Of a DNA stretch of 56,224 nucleotides, positions 24,858 through 53,033 are shown in pieces; positions within the stretch are counted from its first letter, which is position 1; each line of letters begins with the position of its first letter. The DNA is from Parcubacteria group bacterium M6-OD1-3 (GTDB lineage Bacteria; Patescibacteriota; Minisyncoccia; Moranbacterales; UBA9337). The stretch is from the NCBI GenBank assembly GCA_003056165.1, contig LSNR01000024.1, forward strand, positions 1 to 56,224. The letters are read 5' to 3'. The position numbers and the translations under genes were made by a program. Under the pieces are notes generated by a model. It did no database searches and was not told the DNA's origin. It saw only the letters and a program-made list of their open reading frames with translations.

Positions 24858-25136
24858 ATGAATAGGCAGATCGATAATAAAATCCCTAGTTTTTTGAAGC
24901 CATTTTTATGGTCGTACGATTTATCGCGTTTGGATTTGGCAAAACATAAAAAAATTATTATTAAAAATATTCTTGACTACGGAACAGAAGAAGCGACAAA
25001 TTGGCTAAAGAAAAATTATTCAGAACGAGATATTAAGGAAGCAATACAACAAACAACTAGAACCGAATGGAGTAAAAAATCTATAAACCTGTGGTCTTTT
25101 ATTTACAATGTTCAACCAAAAGAGACTAGATTTTAG
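24858..25136 (+). CDS. Small hypothetical protein, candidate partner of the downstream nucleotidyltransferase
   Basis: 92 aa ORF ending 4 nt before the next start. No recognisable catalytic motif. Confidence 0.4.
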   Translation: MNRQIDNKIPSFLKPFLWSYDLSRLDLAKHKKIIIKNILDYGTEEATNWLKKNYSERDIKEAIQQTTRTEWSKKSINLWSFIYNVQPKETRF

Positions 25137-25140
25137 AAAT

Positions 25141-25764
25141 ATGTTTTATAATATTCTTGACGAAAAAAGAAAAGATATATTGCCACTATTTAGAAAACTG
25201 AAAAATAAGTTTTATTTGGCTGGCGGAACAGCTTTGGCTTTGCAGTTGGGTCATCGAGATAGCGTTGATTTCGATTTTTTTTCTGAAGATGAATTTGATA
25301 CGCGAGAATTATTTGAAAAGTTAAAAATACTTTTTCAAGATTTTGAAATTAAAAAAGTTCAAGATGAAAAAAATACATTGACTATTATCGTTGATAAAAA
25401 TGTGAAGTTGAGTTTCTTTACTTATGAATATACGCTTTTAAACTCATTGCTAGACGAAAAATATATTAGATTAGCATCCTTAGAAGATATTGCATGTATG
25501 AAATTGTCGGCAATTGTTAGTCGTTCTACGGAAAAAGATTATGTGGACTTATATTTTATTTTGCAAAATTATAAATTAAAAGATTTATTAAATTTATCTA
25601 AGAAAAAATTTCCTACTTTGGATACAAATTTAATTATCAAAAGCTTAACTTATTTTGATGATATTATTGAAGAAGAAATTATTTTCAAAAATAACAATAA
25701 TATTTCATTAGTTGAAATTGAAACTTTTTTAGAAAAAGTAGTGAGAGATTATTTAAAAAAATAA
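25141..25764 (+). CDS. AbiEii/DUF1814-like nucleotidyltransferase (putative type IV toxin-like)
   Basis: FYLAGGTALALQLGHRDSVDFDFF is the typical N-terminal NTase signature of this family. ATG at 25141 is chosen. Confidence 0.55.
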   Translation: MFYNILDEKRKDILPLFRKLKNKFYLAGGTALALQLGHRDSVDFDFFSEDEFDTRELFEKLKILFQDFEIKKVQDEKNTLTIIVDKNVKLSFFTYEYTLLNSLLDEKYIRLASLEDIACMKLSAIVSRSTEKDYVDLYFILQNYKLKDLLNLSKKKFPTLDTNLIIKSLTYFDDIIEEEIIFKNNNNISLVEIETFLEKVVRDYLKK

Positions 25765-25821
25765 TATTTTATTGAATAATATTTTCATATTGTCACTAGA
25801 ATCTAATAATGGTGATTTTTT

Positions 25822-25856
25822 AGTAACGTACCATGGTACGTTACTTGGTACGTTAC
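25822..25856 (+). repeat. Triple 10-mer motif: inverted plus two direct GGTACGTTAC units (copy 1 of 2)
   Basis: agtaacgtaccatggtacgttacttggtacgttac. A near-identical copy lies at 41246-41279. Confidence 0.9.
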
Positions 25857-26163
25857 CCAGTGTATTGCTTAATATTGCTATTTACTTTTTGAAAAATAAA
25901 AACAGTTAATTGCTCCAGTTAATTATTTGTCTGCCTGTCTTTGGATGGAAACCATGTTGAGTCCCTGTCTATCGGTAAGCAAGTAAATCTATCTATTAGC
26001 ATTTTTGAAATTGTAGTGAAATGGAGGTTAGCGAAGTGAAAGAAATTTGGACAGAGCCTGCAAGGCGTAGTCTCTTAATTGCTGTTATGTGTTTTTTCTG
26101 TAAGAAAAAATGCTGGAGAAAATTTTTAATTTTCGCAAGCACAGTATGACGCAGGGATGGACG

Positions 26164-26649
26164 TTAGAAGTAATATTTATTAAGTAAGAATAATAGTTCG
26201 GGATGGAATTTTTCTCCATTATTTACCATTTTTTTAATTTTTTGTATTGTAAAAAAATCAACTTTGTTAACAACTTCTTTATCTGGATGAAATGGTCCAT
26301 TAAAAATGGACTTAAATGTAAATAAAAATTTATTTGGAGTACCTTCTGCTTCATAATAATCTTTATTAAATTCTTCAATTTCACTAGTTAAACCTAATTC
26401 TTCTTGATATTCTCTTAGGGCAGCATCTTTATAAGATTCTTTAGATTGCACATGACCTCCAACAGTTGTTGACCAATGATTTGGACAAAATGAAACTTGC
26501 TTGCTTCTTAATTGTAAAGCCATTTCATTTTTATTGTTAAATATTAAAATGTGTACAATTCTATGACATAACGATTTTTTGTATATGTCTTCTCTAGAAG
26601 CAACTCCAATTACTTCATCTTTTTTATTTACAATGTCTAAAAATTCCAT
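26164..26649 (-). CDS. Nudix hydrolase
   Basis: Nudix box GGHVQSKESYKDAALREYQEELGL (Gx5Ex7REUxEExGU). Confidence 0.85.
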   Translation of the reverse strand: MEFLDIVNKKDEVIGVASREDIYKKSLCHRIVHILIFNNKNEMALQLRSKQVSFCPNHWSTTVGGHVQSKESYKDAALREYQEELGLTSEIEEFNKDYYEAEGTPNKFLFTFKSIFNGPFHPDKEVVNKVDFFTIQKIKKMVNNGEKFHPELLFLLNKYYF

Positions 26650-27055
26650 CTAAATAGTATTAATTATTTACTTAAATATAAAAGTTATGTTAGTCCGTCT
26701 CGAGTAATATTGCACATAACGTTCATCGATGAAGCGAAGTTTTATTTACTCTTTATTATTGTTTCTCTTTGAGCGAAACGGAAGAGAAAGGTTTAATAAA
26801 TGTAAATTTCTGGAATTGCATATACTTTGTTATGTGATGCAACATCTGAAAATTTATTTTTGTTTATTAAAATTTAAAAAGTCATATTTTCTGAAGGCTT
26901 GAGTAAGATTTGGGCGGGTAATTTCACTAACTCTAGTATGGCATACACAACTAGCCGTCTATCCGGTTGTTATATGAAGCCACGAAACGCGAGCCCCTGC
27001 CTACCGGCAGGCAGGCAAGTCTATCCTTGCATTATTTGGAACCGAGCTCGCGAGG

Positions 27056-27249
27056 TTTCAAATAACTGGTTTTTATACAAACTTTTTAGTCTTTAATAAT
27101 TTAAGTTTGTATATTATGCCTACTGTAAAAAGTAGTATTTTTTTGTTTCGTAAGTTAATTTTATTATAACAAACTATTTTTTTAAAAACAATGAAAAATG
27201 TTGGAGAGAAAATAATCTAGGACCGTCCTAGACATCCCTTTTTTTAAAA
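27056..27249 (+). repeat. Left copy of a ~194-bp direct repeat ending in the 17-nt REP-like palindrome
   Basis: Aligned by eye to 31419-31612, with 5 substitutions over about 194 nt. Confidence 0.95.
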
Positions 27250-27321
27250 TTAAAAAACTTGCAATTTTATTTAGATACTGATAGTATATCAATATAATTT
27301 GATATAGTTGATATTAATATT

Positions 27322-27630
27322 ATGAAATGTTTTTGTAAAACCAATCAAAGCACAAAACAGCTTTCGGAAACTGTTTTATTTTTAAAGGCGGTTTCTGACG
27401 AGAATCGTTTGAAAATTATTTGCTTCTTAAATAAGGGTGAAAAATGTGTTTGTGAGATTGTAGAATTTTTAGAATTACCTCAAAATCTCGTGTCTCACCA
27501 TCTAAAGATTTTGAGAAATCAAAACATTCTTATTTCGAGAAAGAATGGCTTAAATGTTTTTTATTCAATTAATCAAAAGAATATATCAAATATTATAAAC
27601 TTTTTTAATTTTTTAATTTTAAAATCATGA
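27322..27630 (+). CDS. ArsR/SmtB family metalloregulator
   Basis: wHTH with LKAVSDENRLKII, CVCEI (metal/arsenite-binding Cys pair) and VSHHLKILR. Confidence 0.9.
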   Translation: MKCFCKTNQSTKQLSETVLFLKAVSDENRLKIICFLNKGEKCVCEIVEFLELPQNLVSHHLKILRNQNILISRKNGLNVFYSINQKNISNIINFFNFLILKS

Positions 27631-27881
27631 AAAAAATAAATATCCAAGTTTTGGGTGCAGGTTGTCCGACCTGCAAAACTCTTTATGATAAAGTTTTGGA
27701 AGTTGCCAAAAAAATTAATTCAACACTAGAAGTTGAATATATTACTGATGTTACAAAAATTGTAGAATTGGGAGCTATGAGTAGTCCAGTGTTTGCAATT
27801 GACGGAGAAGTTATAACAGCTGGAAAAATGCCCAATGAACAGGAAATCAAAGATGTTATTTTAGAGAAATTAAACTCTTAA
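27627..27881 (+). CDS. Thioredoxin-fold redox-active disulfide protein
   Basis: GAGCPTC (CxxC) in an ~84 aa protein. ATGA overlap with the arsR stop. Confidence 0.85.
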   Translation: MKKINIQVLGAGCPTCKTLYDKVLEVAKKINSTLEVEYITDVTKIVELGAMSSPVFAIDGEVITAGKMPNEQEIKDVILEKLNS

Positions 27882-27884
27882 GTT

Positions 27885-28856
27885 ATGAATATTTTCTATC
27901 CTTTTAAATGGCTGGCTGATTATATTACTTTTAATGTATTTTCGCTAGAAGTAGGTTCTCATTTGGGTGGTTCTGTGCAGTTCTTTTTTTATGATTCTTT
28001 TAAAATTGTTGCTCTCATTTTATTTATTACTCATTTTATGAGTTTGCTCAGATACTATCTACCAATTGAAGAATTAAGAAATTTCCTTACTAAACATAAG
28101 TTTTATGGATTAGATTATTTTTTGGCGACAATTTTTGGAGCTATTACTCCCTTTTGTTCCTGTTCATCAATCCCTTTATTTATCGGTTTTATTGAAGCAA
28201 GAGTTCCATTAGGGGTTACTTTTGCTTTTTTAATAACATCTCCGTTAATTAATGAGGTGGCTTTGGCTTTGTTTGTTGGAATGTTTGGTTTGAAGATTAC
28301 ATTTTTTTATGTTTTGGCAGGAATAACTGTTGGAATGTTTGGCGGTTTTGTTATTGGAAAGTTACATTTGGAAAAATATGTAGAAGACTTTGTTTGGAAA
28401 ATACATAGTCAAAGACAAAACTTTAGAAAAAAAGAAATTCCATTTTCTAAAGTTTTAAAAATTATTTCCACAGAAGCTTTAACAATAACAAGAAAAATTA
28501 TTTTTTATGTTTTGATCGGTGTTGGGCTCGGAGCATTTATTCACGGTTTTGTTCCACAGGGATTTTTTGAAAAATATTTGCAAAAAGCTGGTTGGTGGGG
28601 GGTTCCATTAGCTGTAATTTTGGCTGTTCCTCTTTATTCAAATGCCAGTGGCGTTATTCCTATCATAGAATCCTTAGTTACAAAAGGAGTCCCTCTTGGT
28701 ACAGCACTGGCTTTAATGATGGCAATTGTGGGAATATCACTGCCTGAAGCATTAATTTTGAAAAAAATAATGAAGTGGCAATTGCTAGCGATTTTTTTTG
28801 GTATAGTAACTTTGGGAATAATTATAATTGGTTATTTGTTTAATTTATTTTTATAA
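27885..28856 (+). CDS. DUF318/ArsP-like permease
   Basis: Polytopic membrane protein with a TPFCSCSSIP motif. It shows the classic ArsR/thioredoxin-like/permease gene order. Confidence 0.8.
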   Translation: MNIFYPFKWLADYITFNVFSLEVGSHLGGSVQFFFYDSFKIVALILFITHFMSLLRYYLPIEELRNFLTKHKFYGLDYFLATIFGAITPFCSCSSIPLFIGFIEARVPLGVTFAFLITSPLINEVALALFVGMFGLKITFFYVLAGITVGMFGGFVIGKLHLEKYVEDFVWKIHSQRQNFRKKEIPFSKVLKIISTEALTITRKIIFYVLIGVGLGAFIHGFVPQGFFEKYLQKAGWWGVPLAVILAVPLYSNASGVIPIIESLVTKGVPLGTALALMMAIVGISLPEALILKKIMKWQLLAIFFGIVTLGIIIIGYLFNLFL

Positions 28857-28865
28857 ATAGTAATC

Positions 28866-28986
28866 TAATCTAGGACCGTCCTAGACATCTAATCTAGGAC
28901 CGTCCTAGACATCTACTTAAAAACAGTCTTTCCCCAGGCTGTTTTTATCTTATTTATAGAGAAAATAATCTAGGACCGTCCTAGAC
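28866..28986 (+). repeat. Cluster of three REP-like palindromes upstream of the RAYT-like gene
   Basis: tctaggaccgtcctaga at 28869-28885, 28893-28909 and 28968-28984. Confidence 0.95.
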
Positions 28987-29008
28987 AAAAAATAATTATT
29001 ATTTTAGA

Positions 29009-29653
29009 ATGATGTATATGAGTAGAAGAGAAAAAATAATTATTGGAGAATATTATCATATTTTTAATCGTGGAGTAGAGAAACGAAAAGTGTTTAATAA
29101 TAACAGAGATTATTCACGTTTTGTTAACGCGATGATTCTTTTAAATATTGAAAAGTCATCTAAAATGCCTTCCAAAAAAATTGATATTAATGATTATCCC
29201 TCTGATAATGAGAGATTGGTGGACATCGTCGCATATTGCTTAAATTCAAATCACTTTCATTTTATTTTAAAGGAAAACAAAAAAAACGGTATCGCAACCT
29301 TTATTAAAAAAGTGTGTACAAGCCACGCGATGTACTTTAACAAAAAATATAAAAGATCAGGAGTATTATTTCAAGGAAGATTTAAGTCAAAACACATAGA
29401 TTCAAATGATTTATTATTATATTTATCGGCTTATGTAAATTGTAATAGCCAAATTCATAGAGTGAAAGATGCTGAAGAATATCTATGGTGTAGTTTTCCT
29501 GAATATTTAGAAAAATCTGAACCTAGTGTATGTCAAAAAGATATTATCATTAATCAGTTTAAAGACTCAAATAAATATAAGAAATTCTGCTTAGAAAAAA
29601 TTATTGGAATGATAGAAAAGAAGGATGACGAAAAGCTATATTTTTTAGAGTAG
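29009..29653 (+). CDS. IS200-like HUH/Y1 transposase, REP-associated tyrosine transposase (RAYT)-like
   Basis: YHIFNRGVEKRKVF N-terminus, HUH motif NHFHFIL and candidate catalytic Tyr region YLSAYVNCN. Flanked on both sides by the same palindrome. Confidence 0.75.
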   Translation: MMYMSRREKIIIGEYYHIFNRGVEKRKVFNNNRDYSRFVNAMILLNIEKSSKMPSKKIDINDYPSDNERLVDIVAYCLNSNHFHFILKENKKNGIATFIKKVCTSHAMYFNKKYKRSGVLFQGRFKSKHIDSNDLLLYLSAYVNCNSQIHRVKDAEEYLWCSFPEYLEKSEPSVCQKDIIINQFKDSNKYKKFCLEKIIGMIEKKDDEKLYFLE

Positions 29654-29756
29654 AACAGCTCCAGATGCTACAGCTTCTAGGACCGTCCTAGACATTTATT
29701 TTTTAGAGTAGAACAGCTCCAGATGCTACAGCTTCTAGGACCGTCCTAGACATTTA
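29641..29756 (+). repeat. Perfect 2 x 58-bp tandem duplication covering the RAYT stop codon, each unit carrying one REP-like palindrome
   Basis: Units 29641-29698 and 29699-29756 are identical by eye. Palindromes lie at 29676-29692 and 29734-29750. Confidence 0.95.
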
Positions 29757-29795
29757 CTTTTTCTTGAATCTCATACACGCTGTTAAGTGATGTAA

Positions 29796-30512
29796 TTATA
29801 ATTTTTTACTATCCTTATTATTATCAATTTTTTTCGAACCGAATATTATATAAAGGAATACTTTATAGTACAAAACAATAATGATAGCAAATACTGCAAT
29901 GATTAATAGAAACATTTTTATAATATAAAGAGTTGTAAGAAAATCTGATTTTTCATAGAAAACCAAATCTTTATAGAATAATGAATCTGGTCCTACAGGC
30001 TCTAAAAATCTAAATTTTCCATTTTCTTGTCCATTGCCATCATACCGCGTGTATGCATCAGGAATTAAACAATTTATATTATTTTTTTTAATATAATTTG
30101 TGTAGGTTTCTATTGGGACATCATTTCTTCCATATACATCCCTAATGTACAAGGTATTAATACCACTTTTGTTTTGTACTTCGGCAATTCTGTTCTCAAG
30201 ATCACTGGAACAATAAATATCGTCATAAAGTGAGTCGTCTTCATTTGAATTAAGTGAATATGAGCGATCGCGCTCCCCAACTCTTTCATTGGACATTTTT
30301 AGTTCACGAATTTGTTTAACCGCTGGCGTTATTCTTTCTTCAACAGAATTGACGACTTTCCATTGTGGTATGTACGGATGATTCGTAGAAAAAAGGTCAT
30401 CATACGTTGCATAAAGTGCCCAAACGAATGAAACTAAAAAAATTACCAAAAGAAGTCTATGCCACCAACGACTACTTAAACTAAGGTCTTTTCGAAAAAA
30501 ATTGTTTTTCAT
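29796..30512 (-). CDS. Hypothetical two-TM membrane protein
   Basis: N-terminal and C-terminal hydrophobic helices flank a ~150 aa loop. No recognisable motif. Confidence 0.5.
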   Translation of the reverse strand: MKNNFFRKDLSLSSRWWHRLLLVIFLVSFVWALYATYDDLFSTNHPYIPQWKVVNSVEERITPAVKQIRELKMSNERVGERDRSYSLNSNEDDSLYDDIYCSSDLENRIAEVQNKSGINTLYIRDVYGRNDVPIETYTNYIKKNNINCLIPDAYTRYDGNGQENGKFRFLEPVGPDSLFYKDLVFYEKSDFLTTLYIIKMFLLIIAVFAIIIVLYYKVFLYIIFGSKKIDNNKDSKKL

Positions 30513-30913
30513 AAGAGTAAAAAATTATAATTAGTTCATTTAATGCTACGGCTAAACGAAGTCTTGTGAGGGAGTGAAAGAAAAAAAGAAATGAAATTTT
30601 CTTTTTTCTTGAATGACTGAACAAGATTTGCCTGCCTGCTGATAGATAGGAGCGGGTCATTTCACTAATTATATAATAACACAATTTCCAGCCGTTTAGT
30701 CAGTTGTTATCAGAAGCCATACCAAACTGAGTCAAGTTTAGTTGTGGCATTATCAAAAACCGTAGCGAAGCGGAGGTTTTTGATAACTACAGTTGTAAGC
30801 GAAGTTTTTGAAATTCATTATTATATTAATATTCATTTCATAAATTTGGAGAAGATATTTTTTACTCTTAATTCCGCATTAGCGGAATTGCTTTTATATA
30901 ATAAATTTAATTT

Positions 30914-31363
30914 TTACTCCCATTTTTTGACGAGATTTTCAAATTCTTCATATGAACCTGTATGTTGTGGCTCTGCACCAAAAACAAAAATTTCTCCTCC
31001 TCCTGTGTTTATTAACAAATCTTCTATCAATTCGCCTGAAATTGTACGCAACTTCCATCTCGCTCCCTCTGAATAATCTTTTTTAGTTAAGGTAGTCATA
31101 TCATTAGGCGAATTAAAATCAATTGCAGAGACACCAATATACAAACATTTTTTTGCTTTTGGACTATAAAAAACTTTTTGAATTTTGCTAATTATTGTGT
31201 CTGTGTCCTTACTATAATTATCATTATTATATTGGATTGCATCCTTTTGTTTTTCACACTCTAAATTTCTTCCAAAATATTGATTTGAACAACCAGCCAA
31301 TAAGACAACAGCAACTAAAAGCAAAAAAATGTTTAATGGTTTCATATATTTTAGGTTAATCAT
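30914..31363 (-). CDS. Hypothetical lipoprotein
   Basis: Signal peptide with lipobox LLAGC (MKPLNIFLLLVAVVLLAGCSN). Confidence 0.6.
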   Translation of the reverse strand: MINLKYMKPLNIFLLLVAVVLLAGCSNQYFGRNLECEKQKDAIQYNNDNYSKDTDTIISKIQKVFYSPKAKKCLYIGVSAIDFNSPNDMTTLTKKDYSEGARWKLRTISGELIEDLLINTGGGEIFVFGAEPQHTGSYEEFENLVKKWE

Positions 31364-31418
31364 AAAAATTAAATTTATTATATAAAAGTTGGGGCGTTAG
31401 CTCAAGAGTAAAAACATA

Positions 31419-31612
31419 TTTCAAATAACTGGTTTTTATACAAACTTTTTAGTCTTTAATAATTTAAGTTTATATATTATGTCTACTGTAAAAAGTAGTA
31501 TTTTTTTGTTTCGTAAGTTAATTTTATTATAACAAACTAAATTTTTAAAAACAATGAAAAATGTTGGAGAGAAAATAATCTAGGACCGTCCTAGACATCT
31601 CTTTTTTTAAAA
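31419..31612 (+). repeat. Right copy of the ~194-bp direct repeat ending in the REP-like palindrome (31579-31595)
   Basis: See 27056-27249. Confidence 0.95.
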
Positions 31613-31641
31613 GTTTTCCACAGGGTAGAGAGGTTAATTTG

Positions 31642-31704
31642 TTGACGAATGTGGGCTGGTGGGGTAGAATTGCATTGTAATGTTAAAAAGTGGGTTGTAG
31701 TGGG
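31642..31704 (+). promoter_or_regulatory. Putative dcw (mraZ) promoter with four GTGGG MraZ-box-like repeats
   Basis: -35 TTGACG (31642-31647), 17-nt spacer, -10 TAGAAT (31665-31670). GTGGG occurs at 31651, 31659, 31690 and 31700. Confidence 0.5.
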
Positions 31705-31779
31705 TAAGAACTATCAGAACTTTTTTATTGTGAATTTAAATAGGTATTTAAATTATTTTACAACTTAAGACTCAGGTAT

Positions 31780-32214
31780 ATGTTTATTGGAGAATATCAA
31801 CATACAGTAGATCCAAAAAAGCGGGTGGCATTGCCATCTAAGTTTCGAGGTGAGTTGGGGAGCAAGGTTGTGGTAACTAGGGGAATGGATAAGTGTTTAT
31901 TTGTGTATCCATTAAAGACTTGGGAAAAGTTGGCGGAAAAATTGGGAAATTTGCCGGTTGGAGAAGCGGGAACTAGAAGTTTTATTCGTTTGATGTTGGC
32001 CGGAGCGATTGATGTGGATATTGATAAACAAGGAAGAATTCTGATTCCGGATTATTTAAAAGAATACGCGGGTTTTAAAAAAGATGTGACAGTGGCGGGA
32101 CTTTTTGATCGATTGGAAATTTGGGACAAAACTAAATGGAATAGTTATAAAACGAAAGCTGAAAAAAACAGTGATGAGATTGCGGAGCAGTTGGGTAAAT
32201 TGGGAGTCTATTAA
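31780..32214 (+). CDS. mraZ: Transcriptional regulator MraZ
   Basis: Two SpoVT/AbrB-like repeats with DPKKRVALP and DKQGRILIP. Confidence 0.95.
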   Translation: MFIGEYQHTVDPKKRVALPSKFRGELGSKVVVTRGMDKCLFVYPLKTWEKLAEKLGNLPVGEAGTRSFIRLMLAGAIDVDIDKQGRILIPDYLKEYAGFKKDVTVAGLFDRLEIWDKTKWNSYKTKAEKNSDEIAEQLGKLGVY

Positions 32215-35380: not shown

Positions 35381-35569
35381 TGTCATTACAGAAATAAATA
35401 TCCCTTAGTGAGTTTGCAAGTTTTAAAGATATGACTATCTGGAATCCAGTTTTTAGAAAAAAGTTTTGAAATAGTAATGGATCGTTTTTTATTAGTTTCT
35501 GGATCACGGATAGACTATTTTTCTATTACTCACAAGTTCGCAATGAAAAATATGTCTTCCGAGATGACA
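35381..35569. repeat. Long-hairpin MITE-like element A (TGTCAT...ATGACA), two ~75-nt arms in inverted orientation
   Basis: Arms at 35381-35452 and 35495-35569. The family is shared with 36965-37168 and 39512-39679. Confidence 0.8.
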
Positions 35570-39470: not shown

Positions 39471-39713
39471 ATAGAGCTTACACTCCAAAAACAGACTATT
39501 AATTTCCCTTCTGTCATTCCGGAAGATATATTTTTCATTGTGAGTTTGCGAACGATAGAAAAATAATCTATCCGGAATTCAGTTCTTAGTTTATGATTTT
39601 GTTTCTTAGCTCTGGATACCGGATAAGCGAAACTCTAATTTTCCTTTCGGAAAAAGAATTTCTGCTTTCCGGTATGACATATTAGAAGTCCATTTTTGGA
39701 ATGGGATGGCTAC
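39471..39713. repeat. Composite long-hairpin element C: outer inverted repeats related to the secY-leader element, inner arms of the A/B family
   Basis: The outer IR atagagcttacactccaaaaaca (39471-39493) has a degenerate partner at 39691-39713. Inner arms lie at 39512-39584 and 39609-39679. Confidence 0.75.
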
Positions 39714-41141: not shown

Positions 41142-41245
41142 TTCAATTTTTTTGGAGAACAAATATGGATATTGCAATTTCGCCGCCGGCAAAGAACTGA
41201 AATCATTTCGATTTCAACTTGCCGACGGCTCTTTTTATATATTAA

Positions 41246-41279
41246 GTAACGTACCATGGTACGTTACCTGGTACGTTAC
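41246..41279 (+). repeat. Triple 10-mer motif (copy 2 of 2)
   Basis: gtaacgtaccatggtacgttacctggtacgttac. It differs from copy 1 by one base in the linker. Confidence 0.9.
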
Positions 41280-41432
41280 TAAAAATTAAAAATAATATAG
41301 AAAAGAATTTTTTATGCTAGCATACTCTATGACATACCTTAAATTTAGTGAGATTGTCTATGATATGGTCAGCGTGGATAGCAACTTGATTATTTTTTAA
41401 AAAGCTGGTAAGTTAGGTGATGTAATACATAT

Positions 41433-41707
41433 AGGCTCTGCGGCTAGGGCTCACAGATCACAAGCTAACTGTGTACGTAGTCCACATCGTAATAAGCAAA
41501 TTACTTTGCTTATGTGCAAATCTCAGAGTCGGAGCATGTGCGAGTTTGCCGGAACGTCAGTGTAGGCAAGGCGAGTACGGCGAGGCGGGGTCGCGAGCAC
41601 GAAGCGTCAGCGGAGTGATTTGTGACCAATTTCCTTGGAATCCGAACCGTCGCTTTGGTATGATAATATAAAAGGCCCTGCAGCTAGGGCTCACAGATCA
41701 CAAGCTA
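41433..41707 (+). ncRNA. GC-rich candidate structured RNA (~205 nt) bounded by 35-nt direct repeats; class unknown
   Basis: The repeat aggc[tc]ctgc[ga]gctagggctcacagatcacaagcta occurs at 41433-41467 and 41673-41707. The interior is GC-rich against an AT-rich background and holds a perfect 9-bp hairpin ataagcaaa/tttgcttat. There is also a long-range pairing of ctcacagatcac with gtgatttgtgac. Confidence 0.3.
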
Positions 41708-41762: not shown

Positions 41763-41834
41763 GGCCCTATCGTCTAGCGGCTAGGACGTATCCCTCTCAC
41801 GGATGAAACCGGGGTTCGATTCCCCGTAGGGTCA
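41763..41834 (+). tRNA. tRNA-Glu (anticodon CTC), no encoded CCA
   Basis: Manual cloverleaf: acceptor GGCCCTA/TAGGGTC, anticodon stem TATCC/GGATG with loop CTCTCAC, T-arm CGGGG TTCGATT CCCCG. It resembles E. coli tRNA-Glu. Confidence 0.85.
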
Positions 41835-42000
41835 CAAAAATAAGAAGAAAAAGCAACTAGCTTTGAGGCGCGCAAAAACTTTGAGAAATAAAACAAAACA
41901 AATATGCGCCGTCGGGGTCGAGAGTTCTTAATGAACACAAGCCAAAGGCGCGGTGTGAATTTAGAACTGGTGACCGATTCCCCACAGGGTCACAAATCGC

Positions 42001-50798: not shown

Positions 50799-50881
50799 AC
50801 AAAAAGGAGCAATACACTTGTGAGCGCAAAAGGAATTCACTTTAAAAAACCTAATAAATAAGGGAGCAACGCTTGTGCGCG

Positions 50882-50993
50882 CCATGATACGCTAAGGCTA
50901 CATGGTAAACCATGATACGCTAAGGCTACATGGTAAACCATGATATGCTAGAAGCTACATGGTAAACCATGATATGCTAAAGTTACACAGCAT
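50882..50993 (+). repeat. Tandem array of about four 28-bp units
   Basis: ccatgatacgctaaggctacatggtaaa occurs twice exactly. Two diverging units follow. Each unit holds a ccatg...catgg inverted repeat. Confidence 0.9.
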
Positions 50994-51218: not shown

Positions 51219-53033
51219 ATGTCAGATAAAAATGTTGAAGAAAAAATTGATTCGTCAGTTGACGAAAAGAAAAAGGTTAAAATTCCCAATCCGGTAATGG
51301 TTAAAAAATTTGCAGAGATTTTGGAATTGTCGGTTTCCGATGTGATTACAGAATTGATGAAAAATGGAATTATGGCAACCATTAATGAAGAGGTTGATTT
51401 TGAAACAGCCAGTATTATAGCGGAGGATCTTGGTTTTGATGTCGAAGAAGATTTGGAAATTCATGAAGGAGAAGCCTTGACATTGGAAAGACTTTTGGAT
51501 ATTTGTAGAAAAGAACAAGCTTTAGATGAAAAATTACCGGAGCGTGCTCCAGTAGTAACAATTCTTGGTCATGTTGATCATGGAAAAACGACTTTGCTTG
51601 ACGCAATTCGTAAAGGTAATGTTGCGTCGCATGAAGCGGGAGGAATTACTCAGCACATGACTGCTTATCAAGTTAAAAAAAGAGGAAAAACGATTACTTT
51701 TATTGATACGCCGGGACATGAAGCTTTTTCAGCAATGCGTGAGCGAGGAGTAAGTATTGCCGATGTGGCTATTTTAGTTGTGGCGGCGGATGATGGAGTG
51801 CGACCACAAACAAAAGAAGTTATTAGATATTTGAAAGAGAAAAAAATTCCGACTATTGTAGCAATAAACAAAATTGATAAGCCGGAAGCTAATTTACAAC
51901 GAGTGAAACAGGAATTATCAGAACACGATATTGTTATTGAGGAATGGGGCGGTGAAGTTGTCTCTAATGAAATCAGTGCTAAAAATAACATTGGTATCGA
52001 CGATTTGTTGGATAGTGTTTTGTTAGTGTCGGAAGTTTTAGAATTAAAAGCCAATGATAAAAGCGATGGTTTGGGCGTTGTTTTGGAATCGCACTTGGAT
52101 CCCAATAAAGGTCCGGTTTCAACTGTTTTGATAAAAACTGGAATGTTAAAAGTTGGACATGATGTTTTGGTTGGAAATACCTTTGGTCGCATTAAGAGAA
52201 TGGAAAATTATGCTGGAGAACAAGTTGATTCTGCTGGTCCGTCCAGCCCAGTGGTTATTATGGGAATTCAAAAAACTCCGGAGGTCAATGATATTATCCA
52301 GGTTGCTAAAAAAGAAACTATTGCCAAAATAAAATCAAAAGGCAGTACGGGAGTAATTAGCGGAATGAATAAAATTAAAGGTAAGAAAGATTTGTATAAA
52401 AATATTGATGAAGGAAAAATTAAAAAACTTGATATAATTATGAAAGCGGATGTTCCTGGATCATTGGAAGCAATCGACCAAATTCTTTCAACAATTAAAT
52501 CTAAGGAAGTTGCCTGGGAATATATAAATACCGGCGTTGGAAATATTACTGAATCCGATGTTAAATTAGCCGAGAGTTCGAATGCTATAGTATATGGTTT
52601 TAATGTGAATGCTACGACTGTTGCCAAGAGAATGGCGGAAAAAGTTGAGGTAGAAATTAAATCGTTTGATGTTATTTATGAATTAGTTGAGGATGTAAAA
52701 AACAGAATGGCGGATTTATTGCCACCGGAAATTATTCGTACTGATTTGGGGCGTTTAAAAGTTTTGGCAATTTTTAAAAATGGAAAAACAGATATGATTG
52801 TCGGTGGACGAGTTATCGAAGGTACAGCAGTTAATAAATCTTTAGTGGAAATAAAGCGAGATAAGGAAATTATCGGTAAAGGAGAAATTTCCAACTTGCA
52901 ACAAAATAAAAAGCCGGCGGAAAAAGTTAAGTCTGGAAATGAATGTGGAATTACTTTCCAAGGCAAAACAAAAATTGAAGAAGGTGATATCTTAATTTTT
53001 TACAAAGAAGAGGAAAAAAGAAAGAAATTATAG
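51219..53033 (+). CDS. infB: Translation initiation factor IF-2 (short N-terminal form)
   Basis: G-domain motifs GHVDHGKTT, DTPGH and NKID. C-terminal beta-barrel domains. Confidence 0.95.
   Translation: MSDKNVEEKIDSSVDEKKKVKIPNPVMVKKFAEILELSVSDVITELMKNGIMATINEEVDFETASIIAEDLGFDVEEDLEIHEGEALTLERLLDICRKEQALDEKLPERAPVVTILGHVDHGKTTLLDAIRKGNVASHEAGGITQHMTAYQVKKRGKTITFIDTPGHEAFSAMRERGVSIADVAILVVAADDGVRPQTKEVIRYLKEKKIPTIVAINKIDKPEANLQRVKQELSEHDIVIEEWGGEVVSNEISAKNNIGIDDLLDSVLLVSEVLELKANDKSDGLGVVLESHLDPNKGPVSTVLIKTGMLKVGHDVLVGNTFGRIKRMENYAGEQVDSAGPSSPVVIMGIQKTPEVNDIIQVAKKETIAKIKSKGSTGVISGMNKIKGKKDLYKNIDEGKIKKLDIIMKADVPGSLEAIDQILSTIKSKEVAWEYINTGVGNITESDVKLAESSNAIVYGFNVNATTVAKRMAEKVEVEIKSFDVIYELVEDVKNRMADLLPPEIIRTDLGRLKVLAIFKNGKTDMIVGGRVIEGTAVNKSLVEIKRDKEIIGKGEISNLQQNKKPAEKVKSGNECGITFQGKTKIEEGDILIFYKEEEKRKKL

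Follow-up and report, generated by a model that had tools for sequence, protein, structure and literature searches.

A REPtron-like candidate module in bacteria of the candidate phyla radiation: a Y1 HUH gene flanked by direct copies of a palindrome at which related strains differ

Introduction

The stretch of DNA analysed here, referred to below as the window, comprises 56,224 bp (31.8% GC) and corresponds to contig LSNR01000024.1 of Parcubacteria group bacterium M6-OD1-3 (assembly GCA_003056165.1). Its plus strand carries, at 29009..29653, a gene encoding a Y1 HUH protein that resembles TnpAREP/RAYT, the tyrosine transposases associated with repetitive extragenic palindromes (REPs), and this gene is surrounded by copies of a 17-nt palindrome, TCTAGGACCGTCCTAGA. 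A preliminary description, made from the sequence of the window, had taken the gene and the repeats for a REP/RAYT system (REPtron). Here, we describe the protein and its palindromes, their conservation in other lineages, most of which belong to the candidate phyla radiation (CPR), and two arrangements of the locus in related strains.

Work on domesticated Y1 transposases (RAYT/TnpAREP) has been concerned mostly with Proteobacteria, and the route by which their palindromes spread is unresolved. HUH-Y1 enzymes bind a hairpin on one DNA strand, cut nearby via a 5'-phosphotyrosine linkage, and rejoin the end to another cut end. It has been reported that Escherichia coli TnpAREP cleaves and recombines REPs in vitro, and the literature holds no evidence of tnpAREP itself moving (PMC8266576). 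The large surveys of these enzymes are limited to complete genomes, and their text contains no CPR taxa (PMC6006769). Our literature searches found no published description of the CPR gene-palindrome module presented here.

Results

A Y1 HUH gene among seven direct copies of a palindrome

The window contains seven exact copies of TCTAGGACCGTCCTAGA, starting at positions 27216, 28869, 28893, 28969, 29676, 29734 and 31579, against a chance expectation of 0.00 in dinucleotide-preserving shuffles, and allowing up to two mismatches reveals no additional copy in the window. The palindromes reported around the gene in the preliminary description are therefore confirmed, with the third one starting at 28969 instead of 28968. 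The gene-proximal upstream copy, or 'left end' (28969..28985, plus strand), is separated by 23 nt from ATG 29009 and by 32 nt from ATG 29018, and its last 4 nt together with CA form a -35-like TAGACA, 17 nt from a TAGAAT. Downstream of the gene, the 'right end' (29676..29692, plus strand) lies 22 nt past the stop codon and is followed by a second copy (29734..29750, plus strand), which is the product of a 58-bp tandem duplication. The copies at 28869 and 28893 (plus strand) are located inside two tandem 24-nt units (28866..28913). The remaining two are solo copies on the plus strand, each at the end of one copy of a 194-nt repeat: one upstream of an arsR operon (27216..27232, repeat copy A), and the other upstream of mraZ (31579..31595, repeat copy B). 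All seven copies are confined to 4.4 kb around the Y1 gene; none is present in the remaining ~52 kb of the window, and half-sites are absent elsewhere in the 56 kb, except for one 7-mer within a tRNA.

The centre base is C on the plus strand in 7/7 copies, i.e., their orientation is direct throughout, as had been described before, and no inverted pairs of the REPIN (REP doublet forming a hairpin) or BIME (bacterial interspersed mosaic element) type exist among them. As to the flanks, which were also said to be conserved, CA follows all seven copies on the 3' side and TAA precedes five of the seven on the 5' side. A GTAG or GT[AG]G tag at the 5' foot of the hairpin is absent, the 5' flanks in the window being TAA or GCT, and the flanks in other lineages (TTTTY, AATTT, TAGT, CACC or CATT) do not include GTAG either. 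The solo copies in the window have the 5' flank of the upstream copy of the gene (AGAGAAAATAA) and a T-rich 3' flank (CATYYN) resembling the one behind the downstream copy; this mixture is what a junction with a single palindrome would look like. As single-stranded DNA, the palindrome is calculated to form a 7-bp stem with a 3-nt CCG loop (-4.8 kcal/mol, z = -4.4), and direct reading of the A-rich 5' and T-rich 3' flanks revealed no longer hairpin. Rfam searches of the whole window at the gathering threshold, and of positions 26600-31800 at E <= 1, yielded nothing apart from tRNA-Glu and miRNA matches that are spurious and due to the palindromes. Membership of the CGTC-tagged REP family (PMC3733652) was considered and rejected, because the CGTC of the palindrome lies in its stem and loop and is not an unpaired terminal tag.

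The protein is a Y1 HUH enzyme nearer to TnpAREP/RAYT than to IS200/IS605 TnpA

The gene encodes 214 aa when read from ATG 29009, as the preliminary description had it, although the true start is probably ATG 29018, giving 211 aa (MSRREK...), because the homologues begin at MSRREK. The Pfam model Y1_Tnp (PF01797) matches residues 70-144 with 34.2 bits against a gathering score of 23. An alignment of 25 homologues shows that H82, H84, Y142, N146 and H150 are invariant, and in the same 25 sequences neither the HUH motif (H82-F-H84, residues 82-84) nor the tyrosine region (YVNCN, residues 142-146) that had been noticed at the outset varies. The motif set of the protein consists of NHFH, FQG/FQGRF and YVNCNS, the last with the catalytic tyrosine Y142 and, at position +5 where Pro is usual, a Ser that is nearly invariant among the 25 homologues.

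Sequence searches of the PDB with the protein and with the 25-sequence profile gave no meaningful match, and it is for this reason that a fold search was needed to relate the protein to solved structures. The AlphaFold (AF2) model has a predicted local distance difference test score (pLDDT) of 87.6 and a predicted template modelling score (pTM) of 0.86, and its best match in Foldseek is 4ER8, E. coli TnpAREP with a REP hairpin (E = 3.5e-7, template modelling score on the target 0.72); IS608 and ISDra2 TnpA (2VJV and 2XM3) rank behind it. In an hhalign alignment to E. coli RayT, which is statistically weak (E = 0.03), HFH falls on HMH, FQGRF on WQPRF, and Y142-VNC-N146 on Y115-IYI-N119. Hence, the catalytic tyrosine, the presence of which the preliminary description had proposed to check by alignment, is found opposite that of RayT. 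The protein furthermore has a C-terminal helical extension of roughly 60 aa. The top fold match, the Y-x-x-x-N motif, and the aligned HFH and Y142 support the view that the window protein is a Y1 HUH enzyme with its catalytic residues in place, and that it is nearer to TnpAREP/RAYT than to IS200/IS605 TnpA.

According to Table 1 of Quentin et al. 2018 (PMC6006769), class 1, or IS200 TnpAY1, is characterized by Y-x-x-x-Q and DH[VI]H. The window protein lacks these motifs and has YVNCN (N at +4) and NHFH instead, so that by its motifs it is to be placed in class 2 of this table (Y-x-x-x-N) and not in class 1. It should be noted that the protein scores only 23.2 bits with the NCBIfam RAYT equivalog model NF047646, which is below the cutoff of 80 bits; its homologues score 18-41 bits and the E. 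coli RayT control 179 bits. The family comprises 1,681 clusters at 90% identity (E <= 1e-3), and at least 170 clusters at 50% identity (E <= 1e-30). In the source data the clusters are named 'transposase' or 'REP element-mobilizing transposase RayT' and are assigned to Moranbacteria and Parcubacteria, which, together with the GC content of 32%, agrees with the low-GC, CPR-like setting that had been proposed. Relatives were not found in IMG/VR viral contigs, phages gave one partial match, and plasmids contained only proteins with 24-28% identity.

Gene and palindrome are kept together across lineages

The loci of 10 homologue lineages, mostly CPR, were fetched at decreasing protein identity (40-96%), and in 10/10 lineages a palindrome is present on both sides of the Y1 gene. 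The intact upstream copy is located 12-52 nt before the ATG and the downstream copy 1-38 nt past the stop codon, the exceptions being L054, in which an IS256-like element has come to lie between gene and upstream copy, and L017, in which the downstream palindrome falls within an extended reading frame. The 17-mer of the window is found in strains L008 and L062 (95-96% protein identity), which carry the haplotype named H2 below. It is replaced by CTAGGACCGTCCTAG in L047, L050 and L041 (73-77%), by TCGAGGACCGTCCTCGA in L049 (63%; with a degenerate downstream copy) and also in L054 (57%), by CCGAGGACCGTCCTCGG in L052 (61%), by GAGGACCGTCCTC upstream and CTAGGACCGTCCTCGA downstream in L074 (58%), by CCCGAAGCTWAGCTTCGGG in L057 (47%), and by TAGGGACTWAGTCCCTA in L060 (44%). 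The most distant loci, L017 and L031/L044 (40% identity, 47-53% GC), have a 17-mer identical to that of the window, extended to ACA...TGT.

These palindromes represent three distinct types plus compensatory variants. The 11-nt AGGACCGTCCT core (AGGAC-C-GTCCT) is invariant in eight of the 10 lineages, and the other two have different palindromes. When 14 variants with the AGGACCGTCCT core are compared, neither the centre nor any of the five inner pairs varies. The three outer pairs show 9 double-sided changes versus 2.8 in shuffles, and 95.5% of cells are paired versus 28-45% with slid partners. Judged from these alignments, the outer stem pairs change in a compensatory manner. Every gene-flanking copy in the CPR AGGACCGTCCT lineages has C as its centre base on the sense strand of the gene, and in the sequences compared the direct orientation is a trait of the family and not of the window alone. 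Solo copies at 0.7-5 kb from the gene also occur (L047 15721, L050 6127, and L054 11326), and a homologue locus of 10-20 kb has only 2-3 copies in all. The region between palindromes 10640 and 15721 of L047 contains Fic, HigB and restriction-modification fragments. The sense strand of the Y1 gene has a positive GC skew, both in the window and in 10/10 homologue loci checked. The recurrence of the same direct arrangement around homologues in 10/10 lineages supports the conclusion, drawn from sequence comparison, that the palindrome is the cognate flanking element of the Y1 gene.

Two further observations concern the palindrome in its wider context. L017 contains, at ~675-690, a copy of the core palindrome (AAGGACGGTCCTT) with the opposite centre base within the coding sequence of the homologue itself, which recalls the REP insertions inside tnpAREP genes reported for subclass 2.4 (PMC6006769). 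The idea that the palindrome is the operator of the adjacent ArsR regulator was rejected, since the palindrome accompanies Y1 genes that have no arsR nearby.

Related strains differ at the palindromes

The arrangement of the locus can be described by module letters: P for the palindrome, A for the arsR operon, T for a 59-nt segment, X for the Y1 gene segment, x' for a duplicated 41 nt, Z for two minus-strand genes, R for the 194-nt repeat, and M for the mraZ upstream region. The window has haplotype H1, R-P-A-P-P-T-P-X-P-x'-P-Z-R-P-M, which is also present in L005, L006 and L007 and is found in the independent assemblies GCA_003056105.1, GCA_006243245.1 and GCA_006243105.1, whereas three other assemblies (L008, L062 and L065) have haplotype H2, P-A-P-X-P-T-P-M. 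The two haplotypes are closely related: MraZ is identical, the Y1 proteins are 95-96% identical, and the DNA is 92-97% identical. T and X are permuted between them: module T precedes the Y1 gene in the window but follows it in H2. In addition, H2 is without Z, the x' duplication and the R copy on the mraZ side, and retains only about 26 nt of R before the arsR-proximal palindrome.

Every breakpoint between the haplotypes is inside a palindrome, as all blastn homology blocks between H1 and H2 end or overlap in one. The 'empty' position in the other haplotype keeps one, and X is located at a palindrome site in either haplotype. To judge from the two sequences, either the 0.7-kb gene cassette X or the 76-nt T+P unit has moved; the T/X permutation cannot be accounted for by a simple deletion. 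Since the blocks of DNA between palindromes differ in order among related strains, the comparison suggests local activity of the system.

The individual modules are as follows. Module A (27322..28856, plus strand) is bounded by palindromes and encodes an arsR-family regulator (HTH_5), a Thioredoxin_3 protein and an ArsP_1 permease (Pfam assignments); Logan unitigs L071-L073 correspond exactly to this module with a palindrome at either end, and the De Bruijn unitigs of three samples end precisely at the palindrome repeat. The two tandem 24-nt units, TAATCTAGGACCGTCCTAGACATC (28866..28913, plus strand), directly follow the stop codon of the permease gene, and their number varies between near-identical assemblies, with two in the window and one in L005. 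Module T comprises the 59 nt between palindromes at 28910..28968 (plus strand) and contains a terminator-like hairpin (28918-28947). In the exact tandem duplication of 58 bp (29639..29754, plus strand, two copies with 100% identity), each copy runs from the final 15 nt of the gene through 22 nt and the palindrome to CATT. The duplication is restricted to H1 (window, L005, L006 and L007), and a single copy is present in L008 and L062. Module Z (29751..31418, minus strand) contains a gene for a 238-aa membrane protein (29796-30512) and one for a 149-aa lipoprotein-like protein (30914-31363).

The two copies of the direct repeat R, copy A (27056..27249, plus strand), which terminates in the palindrome followed by CATCCCTTTTTTTAAAA, and copy B (31419..31612, plus strand), are 97% identical, and both finish with the palindrome plus CATCYCTTTTTTTAAAA. 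They enclose a segment of 4.36 kb with the arsR-like regulator, the Thioredoxin_3 protein, the ArsP_1 permease, the Y1 gene and the two minus-strand genes (238 aa and 149 aa), and the mraZ/dcw cluster is located downstream of this segment.

Occurrence of the palindrome beyond the window

Scans of public contigs identified no further contig clearly derived from this organism, whose genome is incompletely covered there. Based on zero copies in ~52 kb and an assumed genome size of ~0.8 Mb, we estimate that more than ~50 uniformly dispersed copies of the palindrome are unlikely. The seven copies, gathered in a single 4.4-kb cluster, do not support the use of 'REP', as in the preliminary description, in the sense of a genome-dispersed high-copy repeat. 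A second Y1 gene was detected neither in the 56-kb window nor in any fetched locus.

A scan of genome contigs for the 17-mer gave one chance match (Thermophilibacter, 65% GC) and four copies in one metagenome-assembled genome, CAZTAH01 (labelled Saccharibacteria, 35% GC). The latter copies are distributed over three contigs, partly as 37-nt tandem units (L002 2167-2220, L003 4055-4071, and L004 183-235), and share their 3' flank, (C)CATCTCTTTTT, with the solo copies of the window; one of them adjoins a Fic gene, as does the copy at L047 15721. No Y1 gene was present near them within the fetched parts. The corresponding scan of metagenomes yielded 38 stretches, mostly with other flanks and with GC fractions of 0.40-0.64, a number that is about what chance would give for a 17-mer; in three of them (L017, L031 and L044), the 17-mer flanks a Y1 homologue with 40% identity. 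Seven metagenome contigs from unrelated organisms (L019, L028, L030, L035-L037 and L046; 41-46% GC) contain arrays of 3-4 CTAGGACCGTCCTAG-like palindromes, ~40-100 nt apart and each preceded by TTTGCATGTT, and no Y1 homologue is located on these array contigs.

Further repeats in and around the locus

Each of the two genes of module Z is exactly enclosed by an inverted repeat of its own. A perfect 26-nt inverted repeat (30891-30916 / 31363-31388) surrounds the gene for the 149-aa lipoprotein-like protein, and a 28-nt inverted repeat (29783-29810 / 30516-30543; 89% complementary, or 49 nt at 71%) surrounds that for the 238-aa membrane protein. Among 51 plausible genes of the window only the Y1 gene is comparable in this respect, owing to its palindrome, and control pairs of flanks reach at most 14 nt (<=14 nt). 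These inverted repeats could mark invertible or mobile gene cassettes, or could pair the ends of the mRNA.

A GC-richer element of ~170 nt, segA (26880-27060), lies directly upstream of R copy A. A diverged copy in the same orientation, segB (30590-30790, 72% identical with indels), is located inside Z, and ~30 nt resembling the 3' end of segA are found between the 149-aa gene with its inverted repeat and R copy B. This last remnant suggests that the original duplication may have been segA plus R plus palindrome, with the 149-aa gene inserted later. SegA has no Rfam match, and the RNA fold of 26890-27062 (z = -0.8) is not evidently structured. Immediately upstream of the island, at 24858-25764, there is an AbiEi-like (DUF6922) / AbiEii toxin-antitoxin pair with a Nudix gene. 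GC skew across 24-32 kb is below that of the rest of the window, which is consistent with an accessory region.

Other repeats occur elsewhere in the window. A second low-copy palindromic repeat, GTAACGTACCATGGTACGTTAC followed by the half-repeat GGTACGTTAC, is present at two intergenic sites 15.4 kb apart (25819-25876 and 41242-41299), and four tandem units of 28-29 nt with the palindrome CATGGTAAACCATG occupy the intergenic region 50869-50987, before the gene at 51219. A 35-nt direct repeat (41433-41467 and 41673-41707, 94% identical) surrounds a GC-rich stretch of ~200 nt just upstream of tRNA-Glu (41763-41835); this stretch may be an unannotated RNA, and it has no Rfam match at the gathering score. 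Finally, a 71-nt inverted repeat (35499-35569 and 39512-39582, 80% complementary), the arms of which are 3.9 kb apart, encloses the genes from Mur ligase to a ComEC-like gene.

Discussion

We have described a locus that combines an IS200-like geometry, i.e., direct perfect palindromes at both ends of a gene, with RAYT-like features of the encoded protein. The interpretation that we favour, with moderate confidence, is that it represents a REPtron-like, and equally IS200-like, module of a clade present mostly in CPR bacteria, made up of a Y1 HUH gene and its cognate palindrome. We infer that this palindrome is the substrate which the enzyme binds and cuts, and that the rearrangements are the work of the Y1 enzyme rather than of host recombination. 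The following mechanism can be envisaged. The strand with centre base C, which would fold the palindrome into a 7-bp stem with a CCG loop, is the sense strand of the gene and the G-rich strand, and hence probably the lagging-strand template. The protein would bind this hairpin, and Tyr142 would cut beside it, with a metal held by H82/H84, to give a 5'-phosphotyrosine link that would be resolved by the free 3'-OH from another palindrome. If cuts are made at the same position relative to identical hairpins, such an exchange would release or insert a segment together with one palindrome and leave one behind. The outcome would be a palindrome-by-palindrome exchange in which segments are excised, inserted or duplicated, with one palindrome left per junction, and this would explain both the local array of seven copies and the altered order of modules A, T, X and Z in related strains. 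H1, H2 and the solo copies fit such an exchange, whereas the IS608-type geometry, in which both hairpins are inside the element, fits less well.

Several observations weigh against this view of an active Y1 module. The activity of the enzyme on the palindrome is predicted from sequence and a modelled structure, and no cleavage site can be deduced, either from a tetranucleotide beside the stem conserved across lineages or from the junction sequences. The repeats shared at the junctions are 17-30 nt long, so that RecA-dependent or slippage events could yield the same rearrangements, and the left boundary of the 58-bp duplication is a TAYTTTTT microhomology and not a palindrome, which suggests slippage. 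In other species the gene seems to be stable, because homologue P0024 occurs in one context on 14 contigs, and L047 and L049 share the context dnaG-rpoD-Y1. The strand asymmetry is not universal, as the distant L031 lineage has G at the centre, and the argument from GC skew is confounded by coding-strand bias. Lastly, the palindrome, taken together with its T-rich and A-rich flanks, fits a lenient terminator pattern whichever strand is read. It also overlaps a -35-like hexamer, so that part of its conservation could be regulatory.

The known systems most similar to the locus are the REPtrons (E. coli RayT, 4ER8; subclasses 2.2 and 2.5, PMC6006769). Like these, it has a class-2 Y1 HUH protein with Y-x-x-x-N, for which a REPtron enzyme is the best structural match; a gene bordered by its cognate palindromes, which can form hairpins and vary from one protein lineage to another; and a gene that is chromosomal and, as far as visible, single-copy. 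Among REPs, those of group 3 likewise include short perfect palindromes (PMC8266576). Unlike REPtrons, however, the window has no GTAG or any other conserved 5' tag; its copies are direct and limited to seven local ones, whereas REPs are inverted (REPIN/BIME), dispersed and number tens to hundreds; and its stem is 7-8 bp with a loop of 1-3 nt. The protein differs in being below the NF047646 cutoff, in having NS for NP, and in its helical C-terminal extension of ~60 aa. A CPR host and a gene cassette that itself lies between exchangeable sites are further differences. Of the REP/RAYT system initially proposed, the RAYT-like enzyme with cognate palindromes is thus supported; dispersed copies, a GTAG tag and a match to the RAYT model (23 versus 80 bits) were not found here.

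Could the locus instead be an autonomous insertion sequence (IS) of the IS200 type, that is, a tnpA-only element of ~0.75 kb whose palindromes are subterminal end hairpins and which is multicopy and moves by single-strand 'peel and paste'? The preliminary description had pointed to a lack of IS ends, an argument that is not valid, because tnpA-only IS200 elements have perfect palindromic ends (PMC8266576), and the two flanking palindromes could serve as such. The size and layout agree with those of IS200 (TnpAY1 subclass 1.1): a unit of ~0.7 kb in which a single Y1 gene is bordered by equally oriented perfect palindromes (28969 and 29676, both with centre C on the plus strand), as expected of the subterminal hairpins of IS200/IS605; the cassette is at different positions in H1 and H2; and the strand-specific cleavage and joining of single-stranded DNA may be shared. 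Nevertheless, we regard this explanation as improbable. The tyrosine motif is that of class 2 and not Y-x-x-x-Q (PMC6006769, Table 1), DH[VI]H is likewise missing, and the top fold match is TnpAREP and not IS608 TnpA. There is no sign of multiple identical copies, with one gene in 56 kb and no second one in any fetched locus, and the single context of P0024 on 14 contigs, the dnaG-rpoD-Y1 order shared by L047 and L049, and the scarcity of viral, phage and plasmid relatives argue against an autonomous IS. Moreover, the alternative, 'empty' site retains a palindrome, whereas an IS608-type element takes both hairpins along and leaves none, and solo palindromes border other gene modules. We give just as little credence to the view that the palindrome acts mainly at the regulatory or RNA level, as a bidirectional terminator, an mRNA-stabilising hairpin or an operator, with the permutations resulting from host recombination or slippage. 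REPs are known in such roles (PMC8266576), either strand of the copies with A-rich 5' and T-rich 3' flanks fits a terminator-like pattern, the upstream copy shares bases with the -35-like TAGACA, and both the 58-bp and the 24-nt duplication have microhomology at their ends. However, a terminator of a generic kind would neither hold an invariant 11-nt core over 40-100% protein identity and 30-53% GC nor flank just this gene on both sides, and the T-run begins 6 nt past the stem. As for an operator, the distance from the upstream copy to -10-like sequences is not conserved among lineages, and the strand asymmetry of the centre base is unexpected for a symmetric double-strand site. It should be noted that the regulatory reading and that of a Y1 substrate are not mutually exclusive. 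An artefact of assembly or local duplication without biological meaning might be suspected from the fact that all copies are in one 4.4-kb stretch and that short-read assemblies break at the repeat, and the preliminary description had named a palindrome restricted to this locus as the sign of it. This concern does not apply here, and we consider an artefact extremely improbable: the same arrangement is present in the three independent assemblies with H1 and the H2 arrangement in three others, and the module is conserved around homologues in unrelated genomes.

The motifs of the protein also recall TIRYT, or subclass 2.1 (Di Nocera et al. 2013, PMC3733652; PMC6006769), which are described by NH[YF]H ... 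FQ ... Y-x-x-L-N-P, or W[EQ] and Y[IV]xLNP. The window protein has NHFH, FQG and YVNCNS, and the 40%-identity homologue of L017 has NHFH, FQG and YTHLNP, a likeness that concerns motifs only and not phylogeny; TIRYT proteins are longer than 200 aa and have a C-terminal extension, and the window protein, with 211-214 aa, resembles them in both respects. Subclass 2.1 genes are reported to be without REP-like hairpins and to have long terminal inverted repeats with GGGGWSAS (PMC3733652; PMC6006769). By contrast, the flanks in the window are short perfect palindromes with the AGGACCGTCCT core and no GGGGWSAS.

A more far-reaching interpretation, which we put forward only tentatively and think rather unlikely, is that the Y1 enzyme and the palindrome constitute a site-specific cassette-exchange system acting on single-stranded DNA, an HUH analogue of integron attC recombination. 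Beyond small units tagged with a palindrome, such a system would also carry whole modules of accessory genes, and the Y1 gene itself, from one palindrome site to another in the genomes of CPR bacteria. In the window, these modules would comprise the arsR-thioredoxin-permease operon as well as the membrane-protein and lipoprotein genes, and in L047 the Fic, HigB and restriction-modification fragments. As in attC x attC exchange, a folded single-stranded site with imperfectly conserved flanks is present at every boundary, and the order and content of the cassettes vary between strains. The analogy is conceptual only, since HUH-Y1 enzymes belong to a class other than the integrase-family tyrosine recombinases, an attI/Pc platform is missing, and the number of modules is only 3-4. 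If this interpretation is true, H1 and H2 would provide natural evidence, the first of its kind, that an enzyme of the RAYT class drives mobility in vivo.

In summary, the family described here is largely one of CPR bacteria and has an unusually conserved predicted recognition site. The 17-nt hairpin offers a simple substrate, and the natural strain variants, which differ exactly at the palindromes, provide a before/after pair for the mechanism of rearrangement. The module may be an intermediate between insertion sequences and domesticated REP systems.

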